Positions 5,685 through 49,232 of a stretch of DNA of 64,000 nt are shown piece after piece. The notes under the pieces were generated by a model that was not told where the DNA came from, ran no database searches, and saw only the letters and a program-made list of their open reading frames with translations. This DNA is from Candidatus Aminicenantes bacterium (lineage in GTDB: Bacteria > Acidobacteriota > Aminicenantia > S016-38). The DNA lies in contig JAMOUJ010000006.1 in NCBI GenBank assembly GCA_027068075.1, positions 218,706 to 282,705 of the forward strand. Direction: 5' to 3'. The translations under genes and the position numbers were made by a program. Each line of letters opens with the position of its first letter. Position 1 is the stretch's first letter.

Positions 5685-5710
5685 ACCCCTATGATATCAT
5701 TTAAGAGGAG

Positions 5711-9792: not shown

Positions 9793-11115
9793 CTATCCAA
9801 TCATAACATTTTCGTAGGGAAGGGTGAACCTTCCCCGGGACCTTCTCACCAGGGAGGAGAGAATGGTGAGGGGACCCACCCTCCCCACATACATGGACAC
9901 GATTATGATGATCTTTCCCAGGGGAGAGAGTTTGGGGGTTATTCCTGTGGAAAGCCCCACGGTTCCCATGGCGGACATCTCCTCAAAGGCCAGTTGGAGG
10001 AAGGAGAAGTTTTCCGTGAGGGAGAGCAGGAAGGTGGAGAAAAAGTGGAAGGAGATGAAAAAGACCATGAGGACCAGGGCCCTCTCTATGGCCTCCTCCT
10101 TTATGCCCCTTCCAAAGACCTGAACCTGGTCCTTCTTGGTGAGGATCTTCCTCATGGCCAGAAATCCCAAGAAACCGGTGGTGGTTTTTACACCGCCTCC
10201 GGTGGAGCCCGGTGATGCCCCTATGAACATGAGCCATATTAAAAGAAGCAAACTCGGCAGGGAGAGGGAGGCGATGTCCACGGTGTTGAAACCGGCGGTC
10301 CTGGGGGTTATGGCCTGAAACAAGGAGGCCAGGATTTTCCCCTTGAGGGAGAAACCGCTGAAGGCCCGGTTGAATTCTATGGCAAAGAGGAGAACGGTTC
10401 CCCACAGGATCAAAAAGGCGCTGCTGGCCAGGACCATTTTTGTGTGGAGGGATAGATGCTCCCTTTTCCTCAAGAATTTCTCTTTGAGGTCCCAGAAGAC
10501 GAAGAATCCCACCCCTCCCACCACGATGAGGGTCAATATGACGGCGTTTACCCAAACATCCTCCCGCCACGCCATCAAACTGTCGGAAAAGATGGAAAAG
10601 CCGGCGTTGCAGAAGGCGGATATGGAGTGAAAAACCGAGGCGAAAAGGGAGTAGGCCGCCGGAAATCGGGTGGAAAAGCGGGGATATAGGAGCACTGCTC
10701 CCAGGGCCTCCACCGAGAAGGTATATAAGAGGATGTTTTTCAGAAAAAGGCTGAAGTTTCCCAATCCCGTGGGGGTGAAACTCTGCTGGAGGGCCGAGCG
10801 GCTCAGGATGCTCACCCCCCTTCCCATGAACAAGAATATTATGGAGGAAAAGGTCATAAGCCCCAGGCCCCCTAATTGAAGGAGGGCTAATATTACCATT
10901 TGACCGAAGAGGGTAAAATCCTTTCCCGTGTCCTTGACTATGAGTCCGGTGACGCATACGGCGGAGGTGGAGGTAAAGAGGGCGTCAATGTAGGACAATC
11001 TTTCCCCCCTGGAGGCGGCCGGAAGGGAAAGGAGAATGGACCCTATCAGAATGGCCACGGCGAAACTTATAAGGAGAAGTCTTTCCGGGGTTATTTTTTT
11101 CTTCATTTCAACCAC
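9793..11115 (-). CDS. trkH: Trk/Ktr-type K+ transporter membrane subunit
   Basis: 440 aa polytopic protein with repeated selectivity-filter-like 'VTGL/GFNT/GLSTG' segments typical of TrkH/KtrB. Confidence 0.8.
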   Translation of the reverse strand: MVEMKKKITPERLLLISFAVAILIGSILLSLPAASRGERLSYIDALFTSTSAVCVTGLIVKDTGKDFTLFGQMVILALLQLGGLGLMTFSSIIFLFMGRGVSILSRSALQQSFTPTGLGNFSLFLKNILLYTFSVEALGAVLLYPRFSTRFPAAYSLFASVFHSISAFCNAGFSIFSDSLMAWREDVWVNAVILTLIVVGGVGFFVFWDLKEKFLRKREHLSLHTKMVLASSAFLILWGTVLLFAIEFNRAFSGFSLKGKILASLFQAITPRTAGFNTVDIASLSLPSLLLLIWLMFIGASPGSTGGGVKTTTGFLGFLAMRKILTKKDQVQVFGRGIKEEAIERALVLMVFFISFHFFSTFLLSLTENFSFLQLAFEEMSAMGTVGLSTGITPKLSPLGKIIIIVSMYVGRVGPLTILSSLVRRSRGRFTLPYENVMIG

Positions 11116-11597
11116 CTCATCCTTGAAGGGGGCCAGAATACCGCCAGGGCCTTCCCTTCAATGTAATCGGCGGGGACCAGCCATCCGTTCCTGCTGTCGT
11201 TGCTCACCTCAGAATTGTCTCCCAAAACGAAGAAAAATCCAAGAGGAATTTTCACCTTCAGTCTCAGTTGTTTCTGGATGCTTAGGCAGTGTCGTTTTAC
11301 CGGGGAATTGTTGACTATCAACCTCCCCCGGGAAATTTCTATGGTTTCCCCCGGGAGTCCCACCACCCTTTTTATGAAACTCTTCTGAGGGTTCACGGGG
11401 TAAAGAAATACCACTATGTCGCACCTCTTGATGGCGGGCGGGGGAAATTTTATCACCAGGATTCTTTCCCCGGGGAGGATGGTGGGGGCCATGCTAAGGC
11501 CCTGTACGGTAAATTCTCCGAAAAACAACTGATTTATCAATAGGAAAAGGATGGAGGCTAACAGGAGGTCTATGGCGAGTTTCTTTAAAAACCTCAA
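11103..11597 (-). CDS. lepB: Signal peptidase I
   Basis: 'VVGLPGETIEI', 'GDNSEVSNDSR' and an N-terminal TM anchor, typical of the S26 family. Confidence 0.8.
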   Translation of the reverse strand: MRFLKKLAIDLLLASILFLLINQLFFGEFTVQGLSMAPTILPGERILVIKFPPPAIKRCDIVVFLYPVNPQKSFIKRVVGLPGETIEISRGRLIVNNSPVKRHCLSIQKQLRLKVKIPLGFFFVLGDNSEVSNDSRNGWLVPADYIEGKALAVFWPPSRMRWLK

Positions 11598-11607
11598 AAA
11601 AAAGAAA

Positions 11608-11685
11608 TGGCGGGGCCGACGGGATTTGAACCCGCGACCTCTGGCGTGACAGGCCAGCGCTCTAACCGGGTTGAGCTACGACCCC
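11608..11685 (-). tRNA. tRNA-Asp (anticodon GTC)
   Basis: Reverse complement folds as a cloverleaf: acceptor GGGGTCG/CGGCCCC, anticodon loop CTGTCAC, T-loop TTCAAAT, 3' CCA encoded. Confidence 0.85.
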
Positions 11686-11692
11686 GCTACAC

Positions 11693-11764
11693 TGGGCGGT
11701 AGAGGACTTGAACCTCTGGCCCCCGGCTTGTAAGGCCAGTGCTCTACCACTGAGCTAACCGCCC
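11693..11764 (-). tRNA. tRNA-Val (anticodon TAC)
   Basis: Reverse complement GGGCGGTTAGCTCAGTGGTAGAGCACTGGCCTTACAAGCCGG...ACCGCCCA. Anticodon loop CTTACAA, T-loop TTCAAGT, no encoded CCA. Confidence 0.85.
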
Positions 11765-11775
11765 AATGGCCTATT

Positions 11776-12336
11776 TTATAAGAAGCCACCGGGTTTGTCA
11801 ACTTCTCCAGAAAAATTAGGGAAGGTTATCCTCACCCTGTTGCCGTCCAGGACTTCTATTTCCAGGGGAGTGTTGAAGAGTTTTCCCACCCCCTTCAGGG
11901 CTCCCAGGAAAATTCCCATAAGGCCCCGATGGGATTTGTAGGTCATGATAAGGGTGTTGGGGCCTTCCCATTGATAGGAGAACCGGGGAGGCCGGGCCTC
12001 TGGAATGTTGGTGGTTACCCTGCGGTGGATTTCGTCCATTTTCAGCAGGAATTCTCTGGCGTTGGTAATTCCCCGGTAATAGGGCTTGTAGACCTTTCTG
12101 GTGTAAACCGTCACCCAGTATTCCCCGAAGGCATCTGCCAATTCCTCCGGGGTCATGTTCAGGTGTCTGGACATGGAGTTCAGGATGGCCAGGACGGTTT
12201 CGTCGGGGATGTTTTCCCCCACGGAGAAGGTTTTTCCCACGGGAAGCCCTGCTCCGTCAAGTATGTCATACCATTTCTCCTGGCCGAAGTGTTCCACCAC
12301 CAGATCCCTTATGGCGTCAACTATGCAACCCTTCAT
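11776..12336 (-). CDS. Stand-alone H-NOX (heme NO/O2-binding, HNOB) domain protein, copy 1
   Basis: 186 aa. Aligns along its length with Tt H-NOX: 'MKGCIV..', proximal His in 'FLLKMDEIHRRV', 'PPRF', and heme-propionate motif Y-x-S-x-R ('YKSHRGL'). Confidence 0.85.
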   Translation of the reverse strand: MKGCIVDAIRDLVVEHFGQEKWYDILDGAGLPVGKTFSVGENIPDETVLAILNSMSRHLNMTPEELADAFGEYWVTVYTRKVYKPYYRGITNAREFLLKMDEIHRRVTTNIPEARPPRFSYQWEGPNTLIMTYKSHRGLMGIFLGALKGVGKLFNTPLEIEVLDGNRVRITFPNFSGEVDKPGGFL

Positions 12337-12346
12337 GGCGAGTTTC

Positions 12347-12739
12347 TTAAATTTCCCCCAGGTCCTTCAGGGCCTCCAGGAAGGAGACCTCGTATTTCTT
12401 CATGATGACTCTGGCCAGGCCCAGGTTTCCCTGCCTGCTTATGGCCACTCCGTGATAATGTCTGCTCCCGAGGTGGCGGAGAAGAAGGTAGATTTTATCG
12501 GTGGTTATTAGAATGTCCTCGGTTTCTCCCACCACCTCCGGTCCTCCCAGAAGTTCCAGGGCCTTGTTGTTTTCCTTCAGAACCTCGGCGTATGTGGCGG
12601 AGCCCACGGTCACATCAAACTGGGGGTTGGTGGAAAAGGAGGCCAGGGCCAGTCCGGAATCAATGCTGGCTATGGCGGTCCCCACCAGTTCAGGTATTTC
12701 CTCAGCGCATTTTTTCAATATCTCCTGAAGATTTGGCAT
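12347..12739 (-). CDS. Roadblock/LC7 (MglB-like) domain protein
   Basis: 130 aa. Near-identical to the C-terminal domain of the response regulator at 13397..14524 ('VGETEDILITTDK.Y.L.R.LG..HY.GVA..R.GNLGLARVIMKKYE..FLEALK.LGEI'). RBS GGAGGT lies 8 nt upstream. Confidence 0.75.
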   Translation of the reverse strand: MPNLQEILKKCAEEIPELVGTAIASIDSGLALASFSTNPQFDVTVGSATYAEVLKENNKALELLGGPEVVGETEDILITTDKIYLLLRHLGSRHYHGVAISRQGNLGLARVIMKKYEVSFLEALKDLGEI

Positions 12740-12771
12740 CTTAACTTACCTCCACTTAAAGAATCATATTT

Positions 12772-12799
12772 ATTGTAACACCTTTTTTGATTTTGTAAA
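12772..12799 (-). promoter_or_regulatory. Putative sigma-70 promoter (TTTACA-16-TGtTACAAT) for the roadblock/H-NOX-1 operon
   Basis: Minus-strand sequence TTTACAAAATCAAAAAAGGTGTTACAAT sits about 30 nt upstream of the ATG at 12739, in an AT-rich 120-bp intergenic region. Confidence 0.4.
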
Positions 12800-12859
12800 A
12801 ATTTTAAAAACTTACTTAAAATTCTGGCCTCACCTCCGCCGTGGTTTTTCCGGGTTTAA

Positions 12860-13384
12860 CTATTCGGGAAACACTATCCTGACTTCGTTTTCAGATATCT
12901 GCTCCACCTTGAGTGGGGTGCGGAAGAACTTTCCCACCCCTTTCACCAGGCCCGTGAAGATGCCCACAAGCCCCCGGGGGGATTTGTATTTCATTATGAG
13001 GGTGTTGGGGCCTTCCCATCGGTATTCAAACCTGGGGGGATGGGCGTTGGGGATGTTCTGGGTTGCCTTGCGGTGAATTTCGTCCATCTTGGACAGGAGT
13101 TCCTTGGCGCTGGTTATGCCCCGGTAATAGGGCTTGTAAACCTTGGGCATGTAAACCGTCACCCAGTATTCCCCGAAGGCATCAGCCACCTCTTCCGGGG
13201 AAAGGTTCAGGGTCTTTGATATGGATTCCACCACCGCCAGGATGGTTTCGTCCGGAACATCCTCCCTCAGGGAGAAGGTGGTAGTCCGATCAAGGCCTGC
13301 GTTTTCCAGGATGTCCTTCCACTTGTCCATCCCGAAGTTTTCAATGACCAGGTCCTTGATGGCGTCTATGATAACGCCCTTCAT
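12860..13384 (-). CDS. Stand-alone H-NOX domain protein, copy 2 (paralog of 11776..12336)
   Basis: 174 aa. Same motifs as copy 1: 'MKGVIIDAIKDL', 'MDEIHRKAT', 'PPRF', 'YKSPRGL'. Starts 12 nt downstream of the response-regulator gene stop. Confidence 0.85.
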   Translation of the reverse strand: MKGVIIDAIKDLVIENFGMDKWKDILENAGLDRTTTFSLREDVPDETILAVVESISKTLNLSPEEVADAFGEYWVTVYMPKVYKPYYRGITSAKELLSKMDEIHRKATQNIPNAHPPRFEYRWEGPNTLIMKYKSPRGLVGIFTGLVKGVGKFFRTPLKVEQISENEVRIVFPE

Positions 13385-13396
13385 ATCATGCCTCCA

Positions 13397-14524
13397 TTAG
13401 ATTTCGCCCAGTTCTTTCAGGGCTTCCAGGAAGGCTATCTCGTATTTTTTCATTATCACCCTGGCCAACCCCAGATTACCCTTTCTGGTCATGGCCACTC
13501 CCTGGTAATGTTTCTCACCCAACTGTCTCACCAGGATGTAGACCTTGTCGGTGGTTATGAGGATGTCTTCGGTTTCTCCCACCACCTCCGCTCCTCCCAG
13601 GAGTTCCAGGGCCCTGTTGTTCTGTTTTAGCACCTCCGCGTAAACAGCGGAAGCCACGGTGTCGTCAAAACTGGGATCCGAGGAATATGTGGCTATGGGC
13701 ATGCCGGATTCAATGTTCACTATGGAAGTTGCCAGAATTTCTGGAATTTCTCCCGCCGACTTTTCCAGGATTTTTTGGATTTCAGACATTTTATCACCTC
13801 CTTTGATAATCACCTCAAATTCTTCCTTCTCCCTGGTCCTCTCCTCGTCCTTGTACCTGGCGGCCTCCAGGACCAGGTGCATGATGTTCTCCCCTATCAA
13901 GCCATCCCTTTCTTCCCTGTAGGGTTCCGATGAGAAGGTTCCCCCCTCCCACTTCATCATCTCCATGAAGGCATCCATTCCCAGGAGGCCTCCTTCGGTT
14001 TTTGCCCAGACCACCTTTCCGTTCTTTATGCCCATTTCACCCTTGAATCCGATGGAATTTTCCACATTGAGCACCACATCCTTGTTGTAGAAGGACAGGA
14101 ACTGAAGGATGTCCACCAGTTCAAGGTCGCTCAGGGAGACCTCAAAGCCCTTGGTCTGGAAAATTTTTCCGATAATCCTCAGCAGTTGGTTCAGGTCCAC
14201 GGGCTTTTCAATGTAGAGGAGGGCTCCGGATTTCTTGGCCTTTTCCTTGAAGGCCGGGGATCCGTAGGCGGTAATGAGGATGACCCTGGTCTGGGGCATG
14301 TTTTCCCTCACCCAGAGGAGAAGTTCAAACCCGTCCTTGCCTGGCAGTTTTATGTCGGAGATAACCAGGTCCACGGGATGTTTTTTCAAAAACTCCACCG
14401 CCTCCTCGTAACTGTAGGCCCCGTAGCATTCCAGTTTTTTGCTCAAAAATTCCATCATGGAAAGGGTTATGTTGACTTCGTCGTCCACGATGAGAACTTT
14501 GGGTTTCTTCTTACGCTTAGCCAT
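13397..14524 (-). CDS. Response regulator: receiver domain + DUF4388-like domain + C-terminal Roadblock/LC7 domain
   Basis: Receiver 'KVLIVDDEVN...DLVISDIKLPGKDGFELL...ILITAYG'. Middle 'LSDLELVDILQFL...GKVVWA' resembles DUF4388. The last ~125 aa are paralogous to the 130-aa Roadblock protein. Start placed at 'MAKRKKKPKVLIVDDE' (14524); the longer ORF to 14680 is not receiver-like. Confidence 0.75.
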   Translation of the reverse strand: MAKRKKKPKVLIVDDEVNITLSMMEFLSKKLECYGAYSYEEAVEFLKKHPVDLVISDIKLPGKDGFELLLWVRENMPQTRVILITAYGSPAFKEKAKKSGALLYIEKPVDLNQLLRIIGKIFQTKGFEVSLSDLELVDILQFLSFYNKDVVLNVENSIGFKGEMGIKNGKVVWAKTEGGLLGMDAFMEMMKWEGGTFSSEPYREERDGLIGENIMHLVLEAARYKDEERTREKEEFEVIIKGGDKMSEIQKILEKSAGEIPEILATSIVNIESGMPIATYSSDPSFDDTVASAVYAEVLKQNNRALELLGGAEVVGETEDILITTDKVYILVRQLGEKHYQGVAMTRKGNLGLARVIMKKYEIAFLEALKELGEI

Positions 14525-14536
14525 CGCCCTTAAACA

Positions 14537-14552
14537 AGCAAAAAACTTGCCA
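14537..14552 (-). promoter_or_regulatory. Candidate sigma-54 (-24/-12) promoter TGGCAA-N5-TTGCT upstream of the RR/H-NOX operon
   Basis: The minus strand reads TGGCAAGTTTTTTGCTT. It matches the TGGCAC-N5-TTGCW consensus with one mismatch and correct GG-N10-GC spacing. A divergent NtrC-type activator is encoded 1 kb away. The predicted TSS is only about 2 nt before the ATG (leaderless-like), which is the main caveat. Confidence 0.35.
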
Positions 14553-14607
14553 GAATTCCTCCGCTCCAGTCCTTGCCTTTTCGTCGCCGTGTGGTAAAAT
14601 TTTTTCC

Positions 14608-15513
14608 ATGGAAGATTTGCTACCCACAAACTTGGTGGGGGTTTTTTGTCAGAGGGAGGATGGGATAACCCTTTATCCAAAGGACTTTGAAAGGCTTTTT
14701 TCTCCAGAGAAGGAGAGGATCCTTCAGGAAATAGAAACTGGAAAGAAAAGTGTCACCTTCGGAAGTTGGGACTGGGAAGTCTTTGATGTTACCGAAGGGG
14801 TGGGCGACGGAGAGATTTACAAACTGCTCATCTTCGTTCCCCTCAACAGGGAAATGACCCACATATATTCCATGATAATCCACGAACTGAAAAACCCCAT
14901 AGCGGCCATAAGAGCCATGGTCCAGGTGATGGAAACCAGCATTCTGGAAGGCACCCTGGCCAGGGACAAATTGCTCCAGTATTCCTCGCTGATCCTGGAG
15001 GAGATAGACCGAATGAACCGGTTGCTTTCCTCCATAATAAAACTGGCGAAGCCCCGCACCAAGTTCCAATATCGTTTTGACCTGGTGGAGGAAGTTAAAA
15101 AGGCCATGGGAACCTGGAGCGAGGAGTTTCGGGCTCGGGGGATAAAAATGGTTCTGGTTTCCAATGTGGAGAAGGTGTTTTTCCTGGGCAATCCCGACGA
15201 AATACACCAGATAATCAACAACCTATTGAGGAATTCCAGGGAAGCCTTAGAAGGGGTAAAGAAGCCCAGGGTGGAGGTGAATTTGTGGGATAAGGGGAGC
15301 GAAATCCTCCTCACCGTGAAAGACAACGGCCGTGGAATTCCTCCGGATGTTCTTCAGAAAATAAAAACTTCCTTCTACTCCTCCAAGCCCCACGGACTGG
15401 GGTTGGGTCTCTTCGTGGTGAAGAGCATCGTGAGAAGGTATCGGGGAACCATAAGCATCAATTCGGAGCCCGGAAAGGGCTGCGAGGTGGTGGTTCGTTT
15501 TCCCAAGCGATGA
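14608..15513 (+). CDS. Soluble sensor histidine kinase (short N-terminal input region, HisKA, HATPase_c)
   Basis: H-box 'IHELKNPIAAIRAMV' and G-boxes 'DNGRGIP...GLGLGL'. No TM segments. Its stop overlaps the downstream RR start (ATGA). Confidence 0.8.
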   Translation: MEDLLPTNLVGVFCQREDGITLYPKDFERLFSPEKERILQEIETGKKSVTFGSWDWEVFDVTEGVGDGEIYKLLIFVPLNREMTHIYSMIIHELKNPIAAIRAMVQVMETSILEGTLARDKLLQYSSLILEEIDRMNRLLSSIIKLAKPRTKFQYRFDLVEEVKKAMGTWSEEFRARGIKMVLVSNVEKVFFLGNPDEIHQIINNLLRNSREALEGVKKPRVEVNLWDKGSEILLTVKDNGRGIPPDVLQKIKTSFYSSKPHGLGLGLFVVKSIVRRYRGTISINSEPGKGCEVVVRFPKR

Positions 15514-16751
15514 GCGACATTCTGATAATAGAAGACGATGGGGCCTTTGCCCTGGCCCTTCAGGATTATTTATCCTCCCGGGGATTTACGGTGGATGTGG
15601 TTTTTTCAGCCCGCAGGGCCCTGGATGTGGTCAGGTGGAATCCCCCCAGGGTGGTAATTCTTGACCTCTTCCTTCCCGACGCCAACGGCCTGGACCTCAT
15701 TCCTGAACTTTCCACGGCAGGGGTTTTCATCGTGGTGATCACCGGTTCAGAGGAGGTAAGGCTGGCGGTGGAGGCCATGAGGAGGGGGGCCCACGATTTT
15801 TTGGTCAAGCCCGTGGACCTGGAGGCCCTGGCCCTGAAACTGGAAAGAAATTTTCCAGCGGAATCGGAGCACGGCCTCGTGGGGAATTCCCCGGCCATGA
15901 GGAGGGTGGTGGAGGAAGCGAAACTGGCTTCACGCGGCAGGGCCAGCGTCCTCATCCTGGGGGAGACCGGGGTGGGCAAGGAGGAGGTGGCCCGGGCCAT
16001 TTACAGGTTGTCGGGTAGAAGGGGTAAGTTCGTGGCAGTGAACGCTTCGGCGGTTCCCGAGGCCCTCTTTGAATCCGAACTCTTCGGTCATAAGAGAGGG
16101 GCCTTCACCGGGGCCTCCTATTCCAAGAAGGGCCTTCTGGAGGAAGCCCACGGCGGGGTTTTCTTTCTGGACGAAATCTCCGAAATGCCACCTCACCTTC
16201 AGGCGAAACTCCTGAGGGTTCTGGAGACCAGGAGGCTCCGCAGGCTGGGTGAGACCCGGGATGTAGAGGTGGACTTTAAGTTTATAGCGTCTTCCAACCT
16301 GAGCCTGGACGGGGTCCGTCAGCGGTTGAGGGAGGATTTATTCTACAGGATATCCACCTTCATCATAGAAATACCTCCCCTGAGGGAAAGGAAAGAAGAC
16401 ATACTTCCCCTGGCCAAGCATTTTCTGAGGGAGTTCGGAAGGGACAAGGGGATATTCGGGTTGAGCCCCGCCGCCGAGGAACTTCTACAAAACTATCCGT
16501 GGCCCGGAAATGTTCGGGAACTGAGAAACGAAATAGAAAGGGCATGTATAGTTTGTGGCGGCAAACAGTTGGAGCCATCGCATTTCAGTCCCAACATAAG
16601 GTCCCGGACCAGAATTTTGACCCTGGAGGAGATGGAGAGGGAATACATAAAAAAGGTGGTTCAACTCTGCGGTGGGAACAAGAGCAAGGCCGCCAGGCTC
16701 CTGGGAATTTCCCGGCCCACCCTCCGCAGGAAACTTTCCGGCAAGCCTTGA
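15510..16751 (+). CDS. Sigma-54-dependent transcriptional activator, NtrC family (REC-AAA+-HTH)
   Basis: Receiver 'ILIIEDDG...VVILDLFLPD'. AAA+ 'VLILGETGVGKEEVARAIY', GAFTGA motif 'GAFTGA', 'ESELFGH'. C-terminal Fis-type HTH 'AARLLGISRPTLRRKL'. Confidence 0.9.
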   Translation: MSDILIIEDDGAFALALQDYLSSRGFTVDVVFSARRALDVVRWNPPRVVILDLFLPDANGLDLIPELSTAGVFIVVITGSEEVRLAVEAMRRGAHDFLVKPVDLEALALKLERNFPAESEHGLVGNSPAMRRVVEEAKLASRGRASVLILGETGVGKEEVARAIYRLSGRRGKFVAVNASAVPEALFESELFGHKRGAFTGASYSKKGLLEEAHGGVFFLDEISEMPPHLQAKLLRVLETRRLRRLGETRDVEVDFKFIASSNLSLDGVRQRLREDLFYRISTFIIEIPPLRERKEDILPLAKHFLREFGRDKGIFGLSPAAEELLQNYPWPGNVRELRNEIERACIVCGGKQLEPSHFSPNIRSRTRILTLEEMEREYIKKVVQLCGGNKSKAARLLGISRPTLRRKLSGKP

Positions 16752-16813
16752 AAACCCCGGAAAAATTTAGTATACAATAAGTTCACTTTTTATAACGATG
16801 CCAGGAGGAATTA

Positions 16814-19186
16814 ATGATGATGAAACTTAAGAGAAAAGGTATGTGGAGTTCAGCCCTTTTGTTCTCTATGGTCGCCCTTCTGGGGGCCCGGGACTCCCAC
16901 CCCGACCTGGCGGTGAAGGCCCTGAGGTACTTTACACAGCAACGGAGGGTGGAGGTGAGGATCTGCAACCAGGGGAGTTCCTCCTCCCCGGAGTTTGCGG
17001 TGAGTATTCTGGGCAATTTTACCGGGAGAGAATGGAAGGAAGTCCTTCGCCTCTCAACCATGGGCCTCAGGTCGGGGGAGTGCAGGGTTCTCATAGAAGA
17101 CCTGAAAGGCAGTGTTTTACCCCGGCGGGTGAAGGCGGTGGTGGACCCGGAAGACGCCGTGGCGGAGATGAACGAAAACAACAATTCCCTGGAAGTGGGC
17201 CTGAAGGAAGGCTCTCCCCTATACGCCCACATGGGAGGACTGGAGATCACCGTCACCGCCCCCCGCATGGAAATTCCTCTGAAGGAACTGCCCGCCGCCG
17301 CTACGGTGGTGGGCCAGGATTTTCTGGAGACCATGCCCAGAACCGTGGGAGCCGAGGAGGCCCTGGCCTTGGTTCCCGGGGTGAGGGTGGAAAATCAGGC
17401 CAACGGGGAAAGGGTTCACATTTCCATAAGGGGGCATGGGATCCTCACGGAAAGGGGCATCCGGGGGATCAAAATTCTCGTGGACGGTCTTCCCCTGAAC
17501 GATCCCACGGGGTTTGCTCCGGACCTCTACGATGTGGATTGGGCCACGGTGAAGAGGATTGAGGTTTTGAGGGGACCTTCCGCTTCCCTCTACGGGGGAG
17601 GGGCCGCCGGAGGCATAATAAACATTGAAACCATAGACGGGTACAGTGAGCCCCTGCGCTTGAGCGGTCTTTTTTCCCTGGGTTCCTACGCCTTCGGCAA
17701 GGCCCTTTTGAACGCTGGAGGGACCCTGGGGAAGGTGAATTATCGGATCTCCGCCTCCCGGGCCCAGGGCGACGGCTACAGGGAACACACCAGGTTCCAC
17801 GGCAACAACCTGTACAGCAAGTTCCGGTGGACCCCCAGGGATTCGGTCAGGCTCACCGCCATAGTGGCCTGGACGGATTTTTACAACGACAACGCCGAGG
17901 GTTTGAACCTGGAATGGCTCCGCCAGGACCGGAGAATGGCCAATCCCGACGCCATAATTTACAACGAATATCAGAGGACCGGCAGACTTACCGCCGGAGT
18001 CTCCGGTGAGGTGGACTTAGGGGAGAATCAGGGCTTTTCCTTTGCCCTTTATCACCGGGGCACAGAATACGAGGAGTCCGTTCCGTCCTCGGTGGACCAC
18101 AGGTTTTACAGGGCTCCGGGATTTATATTCCAGTACAGGATCACCTTTGATGCCGGCTCCCTGGTCAACCACCTCAGCGTGGGGACGGAGTTCCAGTGGC
18201 AGAGAATCCACGACTTCCGCCATCCCAATCTGGGAAAGGCGGTGGAGGGTCCGGAACTTCTCTCCGACCAGTGGATTTATCAGAAGAACCTGGGCCTTTA
18301 CCTCATAGACAGGGTGGAACTGGGGAAGAACTGGGGGGTGGTGTTTAACCTGAGGCACGACGAGATAGCCAACGAATTGAGGGACCAGTTGAAATCCGGA
18401 GGAATAGACCGCTCCGGCAGGGCCGATTTCAAAAAGACCACCTTTAAACTGGGGGTGGCCTGGAATCCCTGGGCCCACATGGGGTTCTACGCCAACCTGG
18501 GCACCGGTTTTCTACCCCCATCCACGGAGGAACTGGCCAACAACCCCCGGGCCATGGGAGGGTTCAACACCTCCCTCAAGCCGGCCCGTTCCGTGGGCGC
18601 GGAGGTAGGCGTCAGGGGTTATCTCAAAAATTCCCTCTTCTACGACATAACCCTGTTTCACATCCACACCGAGGACGACTTCGGCCGCTACAGAATTCCC
18701 TCCCGTCCCCTGGAGACCTTTTACAGAAATGTGGGAAGCACCAGGAGGTACGGTCTGGAAACCTTCCTGGCCTGGTATCCCATAAGCAACCTGAGCGTGA
18801 GACTTGCCTATACCCTGGCCGATTTCAAATACCTTTCCTTTAAGGTGGACGAGGAGGAGATTTCCGGAACCTTCCTTCCCAACTCCCCGAGGCATAGATT
18901 TTTCCTTGACCTTGGTTACAGGCCCCGGGAAAGATTATCTTTGGGATTGAGTCTGGAAGGCCAGAGCCGCTCATATGTGGACCAGAAAAACGATGTCTGG
19001 ATTGACGGTTATGTTCTCTTAAACGCCAGGGTTTCCTTCAGGATTTCTTCCCGGGTGGAACTCGTCCTCTACGGGAGGAACATCCTGAATCAGGAATACA
19101 TAGCCTTTACGGAGCCCGATCCCGACGGAAACTCCTTCCAGCCAGCGCCCACCCGGGAGGTATTTCTTTCCCTGAGGTTCCGCTGA
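16814..19186 (+). CDS. TonB-dependent outer-membrane receptor with an N-terminal CARDB-like extension
   Basis: Signal peptide, TonB-box-like 'EITVTAP', plug 'VLRGPSASLYGGGAAGGIINI', long beta-barrel, C-terminal '...FLSLRFR'. Residues ~30-130 resemble a CARDB fold ('VEVRICNQG...NENNNSLEV'). Confidence 0.8.
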   Translation: MMMKLKRKGMWSSALLFSMVALLGARDSHPDLAVKALRYFTQQRRVEVRICNQGSSSSPEFAVSILGNFTGREWKEVLRLSTMGLRSGECRVLIEDLKGSVLPRRVKAVVDPEDAVAEMNENNNSLEVGLKEGSPLYAHMGGLEITVTAPRMEIPLKELPAAATVVGQDFLETMPRTVGAEEALALVPGVRVENQANGERVHISIRGHGILTERGIRGIKILVDGLPLNDPTGFAPDLYDVDWATVKRIEVLRGPSASLYGGGAAGGIINIETIDGYSEPLRLSGLFSLGSYAFGKALLNAGGTLGKVNYRISASRAQGDGYREHTRFHGNNLYSKFRWTPRDSVRLTAIVAWTDFYNDNAEGLNLEWLRQDRRMANPDAIIYNEYQRTGRLTAGVSGEVDLGENQGFSFALYHRGTEYEESVPSSVDHRFYRAPGFIFQYRITFDAGSLVNHLSVGTEFQWQRIHDFRHPNLGKAVEGPELLSDQWIYQKNLGLYLIDRVELGKNWGVVFNLRHDEIANELRDQLKSGGIDRSGRADFKKTTFKLGVAWNPWAHMGFYANLGTGFLPPSTEELANNPRAMGGFNTSLKPARSVGAEVGVRGYLKNSLFYDITLFHIHTEDDFGRYRIPSRPLETFYRNVGSTRRYGLETFLAWYPISNLSVRLAYTLADFKYLSFKVDEEEISGTFLPNSPRHRFFLDLGYRPRERLSLGLSLEGQSRSYVDQKNDVWIDGYVLLNARVSFRISSRVELVLYGRNILNQEYIAFTEPDPDGNSFQPAPTREVFLSLRFR

Positions 19187-23466: not shown

Positions 23467-23543
23467 CAGGATATTATACCAGCGGAGAGGTTTCCGCCTG
23501 AAGATGACCACCGGCGAGCGAATTTGATATCATTTGCCAGGAG

Positions 23544-47459: not shown

Positions 47460-47471
47460 AAACCAATGATA

Positions 47472-49232
47472 TCACACCTCAATTTCTTCCCACAGGGTCA
47501 TGACTTCCTTCAGGAGTTCCACCCCTTCCAGGAGAAGGAATCCGGCGGTGGTTATCTTTTCGTCCTTGGAGAAATGGGATATTTTGGCCTGGGTTAGGGT
47601 TTTTTCAAAGATCTCAGGATCCAGACCGGAGACCTTCTCCGCTTCCTTGAGATTTACCCTTCCCTTTTCGTCGGTGGCCTCCCTGGCAGCCAGGAGAAAT
47701 CTTACCAGATGCGGGGTCACATGGAACTCTATCCCGTCGGGAACGGCGGAAATGGCCCTCTTTATCCTTTCACCTGCCTCGGTTAGGCGGTAAAAGCCTC
47801 CGGGCAGGGCGTCTATAAGGGATTGTCCCACGAGTTTTCTCAGGGCTGAGCGGACATGTTCCTCCTCACGGGGGGGGAACTTGGCCAGGAGCCAGGGTTC
47901 AAACACCCCCCTCCAGAGGGGCATGGATTTCAGGACCCTGGCCTCAAAGGCGGAAATCATGGGGAGCCTTTCAATGGAACTGGCCAACTGGGCGAAGAAC
48001 CTTCCGGACTTGCTGGGGAAGCCGTTTCCCAGGAGGCCCTGCTCCTCCGCCTTTGCTACCCAGGAGTCCCCCGGGGAGAGGTTCTCCATTCTGGTGGTGG
48101 TTATGGCCATTACTGCGGTGGCGGAAACTTCCTTTTTCCCGTGCTGTTTCCTGTCCTGAAAAACCTTTTCACCCCATTCTGTAAATTCGTAGACCAGTTC
48201 TCCCCTTTCACCTATCCACGAGTGGAGCATTCTGTAACTTTCCAGGAGATATAAAGAATAGGAAACCTTCCACGGGGTTATGGAGTGTTCGTCCTCCGCC
48301 TTTTTCCTTATCTGGGAATAACTGGGATATATTTCGGGATTCGCTTCGTGGGTTTTCCAGAGACCCTCAATTATCTCCAGGATGGTCAGGTCCTGGGTGT
48401 CAATGTCTATGGATGGGTTCACCGTTATCGGTTCCACATAGAGAAGTTGGGCGGCCTTCAGAAGGTGATCGCCGGCGGGAAGGAGGTTTCCTTTGCCGTC
48501 CAGGGCCCCCATGAGCATAAGTTTTTCCCGGAGTTCTCCCCCGGGATCCCTCTCCAGAAGGGAAACGAGGATTTCGTCGGTAAGGGGAAAGTTCACCGCC
48601 GCCCCTTTGAGGAGTCCAGCCCTTATCTGCTGACCTGGCCCGGTAAGGGAGTAGTTGTTGCCGTGGGGAAGGGAGAAGGTGAGCAGGCCCATGGCCTCCA
48701 GTTGCATTATTTTCTCCCTGGTGAGGGGAAGGAAGGATTTTTTGCCCGGTCCCGGAGGGGTCTTCCTGAGTTTTTCCGCCAGGGCCGGGGAAATGAAAAC
48801 CCTGGACTCCGCTATTTTGTAAGCCTGAAGCAGGGATTCTCCCAGGGGAAGAAGTTTTCCGTCCCTGGCCAGTCCCCTTCTTTGAAGGGCAGAGGAGATT
48901 TCCTCCTGGAGGGAAATGTCCCCCTGGCTGAGAACCGCTATCTCCAGCATGGAGATTACCTCGGAGCCCACGAATCGGAAGTCCTCCTCCCAGTCCTCCA
49001 CGGGTCCCAGGGTTTCTTCGCATTCCCGGATGGCCTCGGATACCATGTGGCCGGCCTGGGTGAGGGAATATACCCCTTCCTCCTCGGTGAGGAGTCCCTC
49101 CAGGTCCAGGTGAAATAAATATTCTATGTCCTCGTCGGTCAGTTTATCCAGGACCCGGTCCAATTCTATGCCCTGGTCCCATTTTTCTGCCATTCTCTTT
49201 ATCAGGGCTGCGTGCTTTTTCAGAATTATCAT
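47472..49232 (-). CDS. Large acidic hypothetical protein built of repeated winged-helix-like units
   Basis: 586 aa with at least 5 recurrences of '...GLL....G.Y.LT.AG...' (YSLTQAGHMV, YSLTGPGQQI, NLLPAGDHLL, YRLTEAGERI, KITTAGFLLL), resembling MarR/PadR wings. Confidence 0.45.
   Translation of the reverse strand: MIILKKHAALIKRMAEKWDQGIELDRVLDKLTDEDIEYLFHLDLEGLLTEEEGVYSLTQAGHMVSEAIRECEETLGPVEDWEEDFRFVGSEVISMLEIAVLSQGDISLQEEISSALQRRGLARDGKLLPLGESLLQAYKIAESRVFISPALAEKLRKTPPGPGKKSFLPLTREKIMQLEAMGLLTFSLPHGNNYSLTGPGQQIRAGLLKGAAVNFPLTDEILVSLLERDPGGELREKLMLMGALDGKGNLLPAGDHLLKAAQLLYVEPITVNPSIDIDTQDLTILEIIEGLWKTHEANPEIYPSYSQIRKKAEDEHSITPWKVSYSLYLLESYRMLHSWIGERGELVYEFTEWGEKVFQDRKQHGKKEVSATAVMAITTTRMENLSPGDSWVAKAEEQGLLGNGFPSKSGRFFAQLASSIERLPMISAFEARVLKSMPLWRGVFEPWLLAKFPPREEEHVRSALRKLVGQSLIDALPGGFYRLTEAGERIKRAISAVPDGIEFHVTPHLVRFLLAAREATDEKGRVNLKEAEKVSGLDPEIFEKTLTQAKISHFSKDEKITTAGFLLLEGVELLKEVMTLWEEIEV

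Follow-up and report, generated by a model that had tools for sequence, protein, structure and literature searches.

A compact divergent control region with a predicted sigma-54 promoter and predicted leaderless starts between a kinase/activator pair and a response regulator/H-NOX gene pair of Candidatus Aminicenantes

The window, a 64,000-nt stretch of Candidatus Aminicenantes DNA, contains two divergent gene groups separated by an intergenic region of 83 bp (14525..14607), the features of which are collected in Table 1. For comparison, we assembled the loci around homologues of its response regulator (RR) gene (82 loci, designated by L numbers) and read the upstream DNA of each. Transcribed rightward in the window is a histidine kinase gene, whose start is marked by tblastn alignments that begin at residue 1 in L001-L003, followed by an activator gene whose start overlaps the kinase stop by 4 nt. 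An earlier note on this DNA had recognized an NtrC-type activator here, an assignment upheld by the Pfam domains and by an intact GAFTGA loop at 16098 (ELFGHKRGAFTGASY), the element that contacts region I of sigma-54 (PMC7057263). Transcribed leftward is the RR gene, homologues of which some sources annotate as Roadblock/LC7/MglB-like, followed closely by a first H-NOX gene; the two are probably co-transcribed, and their order is kept in L001-L005, L016, L079 and L081. Farther along the same strand lie a gene for a free-standing Roadblock-like protein and a second H-NOX gene.

Table 1. Features of the control region and its flanking genes, and related loci bearing the promoter motif.
Feature	Position	Strand	Details
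H-NOX gene 2	11776..12336	-	
Free-standing Roadblock-like protein	12347..12739	-	130 aa
Internal sigma-70-like promoter (promoter scan)	12772..12799	-	TTTACA-16-TGtTACAAT; 10/12 matches with TG; ahead of 12347..12739 and H-NOX gene 2
H-NOX gene 1	12860..13384	-	Pfam HNOB 4e-41; 12 nt downstream of RR gene
Response regulator REC-PATAN(DUF4388), Roadblock-like C-terminus	13397..14524	-	375 aa; Response_reg 4e-23, DUF4388 4e-13; first gene of unit
Predicted transcription start region of RR gene	14524..14526	-	C of GC taken as -12 places +1 at 14526; A of ATG (14524) is +3
Predicted sigma-54 promoter core TGGCAAGTTTTTTGCT	14537..14552	-	-24 TGGCAA 14552..14547; -12 TTGCT 14541..14537
Predicted sigma-70-type promoter of kinase/activator genes (promoter scan)	14573..14600	+	-35 TTGCCT, 16-nt spacer, extended -10 TGgTAAAAT
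17-bp dyad TGGTAAAATTTTTTCCA, candidate upstream activating sequence (UAS) of NtrC-type activator	14592..14608		Centred near -74
Cytoplasmic histidine kinase	14608..15513	+	301 aa; Pfam HisKA + HATPase_c
NtrC-type enhancer-binding protein	15510..16751	+	Response_reg, Sigma54_activat 4e-57, AAA_lid_14, HTH_8 1e-15
Motif-bearing orthologue loci	L001, L002, L003, L004, L005, L079, L080, L081; L016		58-84% protein identity where measured (first eight)
Motif-bearing Aminicenantes paralogues	L021, L022, second copies in L001 and L003		
Motif-bearing Thermodesulfobacteriota loci	L010, L012, L014, L017, L018		

The extent of the leftward unit is best defined near its promoter. The 120-nt gap before the Roadblock-like gene carries a sigma-70-like promoter and then a GGAGG Shine-Dalgarno sequence, and a search of its minus strand found no terminator-like hairpin, so that both promoters may contribute to expression of the second Roadblock/H-NOX pair. 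Of the proposal that a sigma-54 promoter serves the whole RR/H-NOX operon, the part concerning the RR gene and H-NOX gene 1 therefore stands, and the extension to the second pair is not firm, because of this internal promoter (12799..12772) and its Shine-Dalgarno sequence. The gene at 12347..12739 is a close paralogue of the region encoding the C-terminal domain of the RR (13397..13790, minus strand), each being followed by an H-NOX gene, and in L001 and L002, too, the regulator gene is followed by a cluster of Roadblock-like and H-NOX genes, often present twice. This pattern suggests that a Roadblock-like domain, rather than a kinase or cyclase, may be the partner of H-NOX. The Thermodesulfobacteriota kinase/activator/RR modules are without an H-NOX gene, which argues that H-NOX is a lineage add-on to a conserved core made up of kinase, activator, sigma-54 promoter and PATAN regulator. 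The 3' end of H-NOX gene 2 contains a sigma-70 promoter close to consensus (TTGACA-17-TAAAAT, 11801..11773, minus strand), and genes for tRNA-Asp(GTC) and tRNA-Val(TAC) (11608..11765, minus strand) are situated between H-NOX gene 2 and the signal peptidase/TrkH/TrkA genes; an Rfam search of 11000..17000 returned these two tRNAs and no other structured RNA.

The minus strand at 14552..14536 reads TGGCAAGTTTTTTGCTT, which departs from the sigma-54 consensus TGGCAC-N5-TTGCW only at the sixth base, which is A instead of C, and places GG and GC 10 nt apart, as the earlier note had read it. It is the sole match with at most one mismatch in the 64-kb window. Dinucleotide-preserving shuffles of the window, however, yield a mean of 0.82 such matches per window and at least one in 53 of 100 cases, and matches with two mismatches are below chance (10, against 17 expected). 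Because about one match per 64 kb is expected by chance, the motif alone is no evidence of a promoter and is by itself not significant; its position and its conservation carry the weight. As to position, it falls in the 83-bp intergenic region, oriented toward the RR gene, with 13 nt from the C of the -12 element to the ATG, and correctly placed sigma-54 sites are highly likely to be genuine according to Francke et al. (PMC3162934). A promoter scan of the minus strand upstream of the RR gene found no conserved sigma-70 promoter and no conserved -35/-10 pair, and a sigma-70 -10 element ahead of the RR ATG was rejected, there being no conserved TAnnnT at the proper distance.

Conservation of the motif extends well beyond the window. 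The closest relatives are Candidatus Aminicenantes metagenome-assembled genomes with 83-84% identity in the regulator, and more distant ones carry the labels Acidobacteria and Thermodesulfobacteriota. In 18 other loci, from genomes of Aminicenantes/Acidobacteriota and Thermodesulfobacteriota, TGGCAY-N5-TTGCT immediately precedes the gene for the REC-PATAN-Roadblock regulator, be it an orthologue or a paralogue (Table 1). In an alignment of nine of the sequences (A2), only three blocks are conserved, namely the 17-bp dyad, the -24/-12 element and the ATG, the other intergenic DNA having diverged; within the promoter element GG, A and TTGCT are invariant and the N5 spacer varies. The -24 element of the window carries A at the position where its relatives carry C or T. 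A position weight matrix trained on the 18 other promoters, with the window site left out, ranks that site first among about 128,000 positions, at 19.2 bits versus 14.7 for the runner-up. The -24/-12 element is thus conserved ahead of this regulator family across two phyla, and we consider it very probable that it functions as a sigma-54 promoter. One apparent complication, a pair of sigma-54 motifs in L005, was removed by reinterpreting the upstream member, TGGCAATCTTTTTGCC, as a proximal dyad, since it occupies the dyad position of other loci and resembles the other dyads of L005.

Traced by tblastn with the window proteins, the kinase and NtrC-type genes are neighbours of the regulator gene in about 15 loci, most of those that bear the motif, and take three arrangements. 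They are divergent from it in the window, L001-L003, L005 and L079-L081 (L004 shows the kinase only, its contig ending there), upstream and co-directional in L014, L017, L018, L021, L022 and, judged by its activator gene, the L003 paralogue, and downstream in L016. The motif is present in every locus with an adjacent pair, and seven loci with regulator homologues that have no adjacent activator (L006-L009, L011, L013 and L015) are also without the motif. Adjacency of activator and target is usual in sigma-54 systems, as illustrated by SigL of C. difficile, for which it holds at 23 of 30 promoters (PMC7438776). This persistent synteny through divergent, co-directional and downstream layouts lends support to the suggestion that the kinase/NtrC pair may control transcription of the RR and H-NOX genes, and control of the predicted sigma-54 promoter by the adjacent activator is accordingly the likely arrangement, to judge from gene order and conserved DNA. 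Six-frame translations of the window and of all 82 loci were searched for the RpoN box, which turned up only in two Chloroflexota loci (L069 and L070), without relevance to this lineage, and in none of the Aminicenantes loci; the presence of rpoN in the genome is deduced from the multiple GAFTGA activators and the conserved promoters. In two Thermodesulfobacteriota loci, sigma-54-type motifs lie upstream of the kinase/activator operon itself (L010 10983..10998, TGGCAAATAAATTGCA; L013 8918..8933, TGGCAAGAAAATTGCT), which hints at positive autoregulation of that operon, unlike the sigma-70 promoter predicted in the window.

The spacing between the promoter element and the RR start codon (ATG, 14524..14522) has an unusual consequence. 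The earlier note had pointed out that the predicted start of transcription lies only about 2 nt before the ATG, implying a near-leaderless mRNA. That geometry holds, and it is not accidental, being conserved in 13 promoters of the Aminicenantes lineage, wherein the A of the ATG falls at predicted +1 to +7 with a mode at +3/+4. All 13 genes start with ATG, and none has a Shine-Dalgarno-like sequence, or room for one. The promoter of L016 and five Thermodesulfobacteriota promoters, on the other hand, have the ATG at +15 to +24, behind a leader that contains GAGG or GGAG. A longer N-terminus of the RR is excluded by stop codons that lie in frame 6-27 nt before the ATG in L001, L002, L004, L005, L022, L079, L081 and the L001 paralogue; the N-terminus MAKRKKKPKVLIVDDE is conserved in homologues at the protein level, and translation from the next downstream start codon would leave the receiver domain without its first strand. 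If the promoter is real, a leader of at most 7 nt can be predicted for the RR transcript with considerable confidence.

On the opposite side of the region, the kinase ATG (14608) comes 7 nt after the -10 element of a sigma-70-type promoter and is likewise predicted to be leaderless. The extended -10 element noticed earlier just upstream of the kinase gene, TGGTAAAAT, was recovered by the promoter scan and is conserved along with its -35, equivalents (TTGAT/TTGCC for the -35, TGGTAA for the -10) being present in L001, L002, L003 and L081. A sigma-54 promoter for the kinase gene (TGGTAAAATTTTTTCC) was also considered; its GG is present, with no -12 GC in most relatives, and the extended -10 sigma-70 promoter is preferred.

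The third conserved block is a dyad, TGGTAAA-N3-TTTTCCA in the window and TGGTAAA-N3-TTTACCA in the consensus of its relatives. That consensus has one match in the window, with one mismatch, where 0.09 would be expected with up to two. The distance from the end of the dyad to the TGG of the -24 element is nearly fixed, at 39-41 nt in the window, L001-L004 and L079-L081 and 42 nt in L005. The dyad occurs once in the window; L004, L005, L079 and L080 have one or two more 32-34 bp upstream. Paralogous loci carry dyads of other sequence: GGTTCA..TGAACC in L021, L022 and the L003 paralogue, with the proximal copy 39 nt from the -24 element in L021 and L022, and GTGGCGATATCCGCCAC about 75-85 nt upstream of the -24 element in L010, L012, L014, L017 and L018. 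The HTH_8 helices of the activators differ in step with these dyad types, reading ISRPTLRRKL, ISLSTLKRWL and IPRTTLRDKL in the three paralogue groups, a covariation expected of activator-specific enhancers. The candidate site, near -74, is closer than the 100-150 bp at which enhancers usually lie upstream (PMC7057263), yet these patterns make it reasonably probable that the dyad serves as the enhancer of the adjacent activator. The left half of the dyad doubles as the extended -10 of the kinase gene, whose ATG is overlapped by the right end. We favour a dual role for the dyad, in activation of the sigma-54 promoter and in repression of the activator's own promoter, although autorepression of the kinase/activator operon is put forward only tentatively. 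Dual activation and autorepression of this kind are known for pspF and norR. A second inverted repeat in the window, CCCACAAACTTGGTGGG (14623..14639, plus strand), 31 bp from the dyad, was rejected as a further copy: it belongs to the coding part of the kinase gene, has a sequence unrelated to that of the dyad and is not conserved as DNA in L001 or L002. This repeat, which a T-run follows within the first 30 nt of the kinase coding sequence, was picked out as terminator-like; its conservation goes no further than the encoded PTNLVG demands.

Sequence and comparison show the motif and its conservation, the dyad, the distance to the ATG and the synteny, which together make it likely that 14525..14607 is a compact divergent control region in which a sigma-54 promoter, an adjacent activator and leaderless starts are combined. 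In this circuit, the minus-strand promoter would drive the gene for the REC-PATAN-Roadblock RR and the H-NOX gene behind it. RNA polymerase containing sigma-54 would bind as a closed complex and need the ATPase of the NtrC-type activator (15510..16751), presumably phosphorylated by its co-transcribed kinase (14608..15513), and the activator would most likely bind the dyad, centred some 74 bp before the start site. With the ATG 13 nt after the -12 GC, the RR transcript is predicted to begin 0-2 nt before the AUG and to be translated as a leaderless mRNA. A separate sigma-70 promoter of the extended -10 type would serve the kinase/activator operon, likewise without a leader, and may be repressed by the bound activator, since the kinase -10 forms half of the dyad. 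What we infer in this scheme is which activator acts, where transcription starts, that it depends on sigma-54 and that the activator represses its own operon.

Several alternatives to this scheme must be weighed. It is very improbable that the 16-mer is a chance match or an operator for some other DNA-binding protein and that a sigma-70-type polymerase transcribes the operon. Chance does predict one match per 64 kb, and the presence of rpoN is itself a deduction; nonetheless, conservation falls precisely on the sigma-54 determinants (GG, and TTGC 10 nt on) around a variable N5, the motif co-occurs with GAFTGA activators, and the minus strand is devoid of a conserved -35/-10 pair. If the promoter is real, it could still respond to a different enhancer-binding protein, the neighbouring kinase/NtrC pair regulating something else. 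Related loci do contain several activators (at least two in L003, and another 5 kb away in L004), and L010 and L012 have the motif with no activator gene immediately adjacent. This possibility is nevertheless unlikely, as the pair stays beside its target through three independent rearrangements in two phyla, and the dyad type changes with the DNA-binding helix of the adjacent activator.

There is a similarly low probability that the promoter is real and the RR mRNA is not leaderless, through a longer transcript from an upstream promoter or a true start codon elsewhere. The RR frame of the window is open for 231 nt upstream of the ATG, two homologues (P0005 and P0009) have been called from a TTG inside the -12 element, and the position of the RR start site is itself a prediction. 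A longer protein, however, is forbidden by the in-frame stops of the seven related regulator loci, a later start would cost the receiver domain its first strand, and the Shine-Dalgarno sequence missing from all 13 loci is present in the distant relatives with leaders of 15-24 nt. The most serious of the alternatives, though still an improbable one, concerns the dyad, which might consist of nothing but the kinase extended -10 and the sequence around its leaderless ATG, the activator acting from solution or at some other site. In its favour, TGGTAAAAT makes a good extended -10, CCATG marks the kinase start, the dyad coincides with the kinase promoter in the window, L001-L003 and L081, and the window has just the one copy. 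Yet in L004, L079 and L080 the proximal dyad keeps its 39-41 nt to the -24 element even though the kinase start is 35-100 nt further away; these three loci and L005 also have the additional upstream copies at 32-34 bp, and in L021 and L022 an unrelated dyad maintains the 39-nt distance where there is no divergent promoter. Hence the dyad is retained as the candidate enhancer.

The layout has precedents among well-studied systems. In the pspF-pspA and norR-norVW systems of E. coli, the activator gene is divergent from its sigma-54 target, and the sites that the activator binds between the two genes overlap the sigma-70 promoter from which its own gene is transcribed, so that it activates the target and represses itself. 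The window resembles these in its divergent activator gene and in the overlap of the candidate site with the activator-operon promoter; it differs in having a two-component NtrC-type activator with a kinase, a region of only 83 bp, a site near -74 rather than at -80 to -150, and two transcripts that are both predicted to be leaderless. With NtrBC-glnAp2, ZraSR-zraP and AtoSC it shares a kinase, a REC-AAA+-HTH_8 activator with GAFTGA, a 7-N3-7 dyad and a TGGCAC-N5-TTGC promoter beside the regulator genes. Unlike those systems, its target is a REC-PATAN-Roadblock RR with H-NOX and not a metabolic or stress operon, it has no Shine-Dalgarno sequence and, by prediction, no leader, and its candidate enhancer is closer than 100-150 bp (PMC7057263).

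Networks built around H-NOX offer a further parallel. Transcriptional feedback through HnoC is known in the HnoK/HnoC network of Shewanella, and in Vibrio the H-NOX-regulated kinase HqsK feeds LuxU (PMC8738867); LuxO, downstream of LuxU, is an NtrC homologue (PMC11407668). Like these networks, the window has H-NOX genes beside a sensor-less cytoplasmic kinase and several response regulators, and in the known cases either one regulator (HnoC) controls the network's own genes or the kinase feeds an NtrC-type activator (LuxO). Feedback in the window would act by sigma-54 activation and not by derepression. A search of the literature found nothing directly relevant on Aminicenantes and sigma-54, or on H-NOX and enhancer-binding proteins.

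Overall, the circuit is of a known kind, a two-component sigma-54 system, in an unusual conserved layout that is leaderless and short-range. It is somewhat probable, from the pattern of conserved sequence, that the Aminicenantes lineage possesses a family of sigma-54 promoters fixed 12-16 nt before the AUG, which would yield leaderless mRNAs directly, and that the enhancer about 74 bp upstream doubles as the -10 element of the activator's own leaderless sigma-70 promoter. If so, both this class of sigma-54 transcript and so minimal a bidirectional control region, of 83 bp, would be ones for which our search of the literature found no description; sigma-54 promoters and leaderless translation have usually been studied in separate organisms. 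For an uncultured phylum it would provide a regulatory link whereby a kinase/NtrC pair switches on a REC-PATAN-Roadblock RR together with the haem gas sensor H-NOX. The conservation of the kinase/activator/sigma-54 promoter/PATAN module from Acidobacteriota-related genomes to Thermodesulfobacteriota also offers a testable regulon for a protein family of unknown function, and the 83-bp region, if its geometry is confirmed, would make a very compact and tightly regulated expression cassette from a thermophile-like lineage.

Leaderless initiation appears not to be confined to this locus. Among the roughly 24 operon heads of the window, six, including that of the divergent kinase gene, lack a Shine-Dalgarno sequence and carry a TAnnnT whose end is 6-8 nt from the start codon, against a background of 4% of all ATGs; about half have a classical Shine-Dalgarno sequence, so that the organism seems to use both modes of initiation. 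In S. meliloti, 171 leaderless mRNAs, all started by AUG, have been described, with the sigma-70 -10 element about 7 nt before the AUG (PMC3616915). The window is similar in that the AUG lies within a few nt of the predicted 5' end with no Shine-Dalgarno sequence. It differs in that the RR promoter is of the sigma-54 type, the same genome showing several sigma-70 examples. Our search of the literature found no description of sigma-54-dependent leaderless mRNAs, which is absence of evidence only. A practical consequence of the leaderless geometry is that it exposes mis-starts by gene callers inside the -12 element. P0005 and P0009 were started at a TTG within that element (L080 3990..4020 and L081 3990..4023), giving the N-termini LLLKSAM.. 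and LLLYTNSM.., and these TTG starts are an annotation artefact. The window kinase has also been called eight codons late (293 rather than 301 aa; L077 12..893). Evidently, leaderless genes are prone to being mis-started by gene callers. Finally, the palindrome TGATATCA occurs three times in the window (5692..5699, 23525..23532 and 47467..47474) against 0.53 expected, each copy in a very short intergenic region and 6-10 nt before start codons, with two of these regions (26 bp and 32 bp) separating divergent genes; it looks like a -10 element of leaderless genes that would be bidirectional at the two divergent sites.
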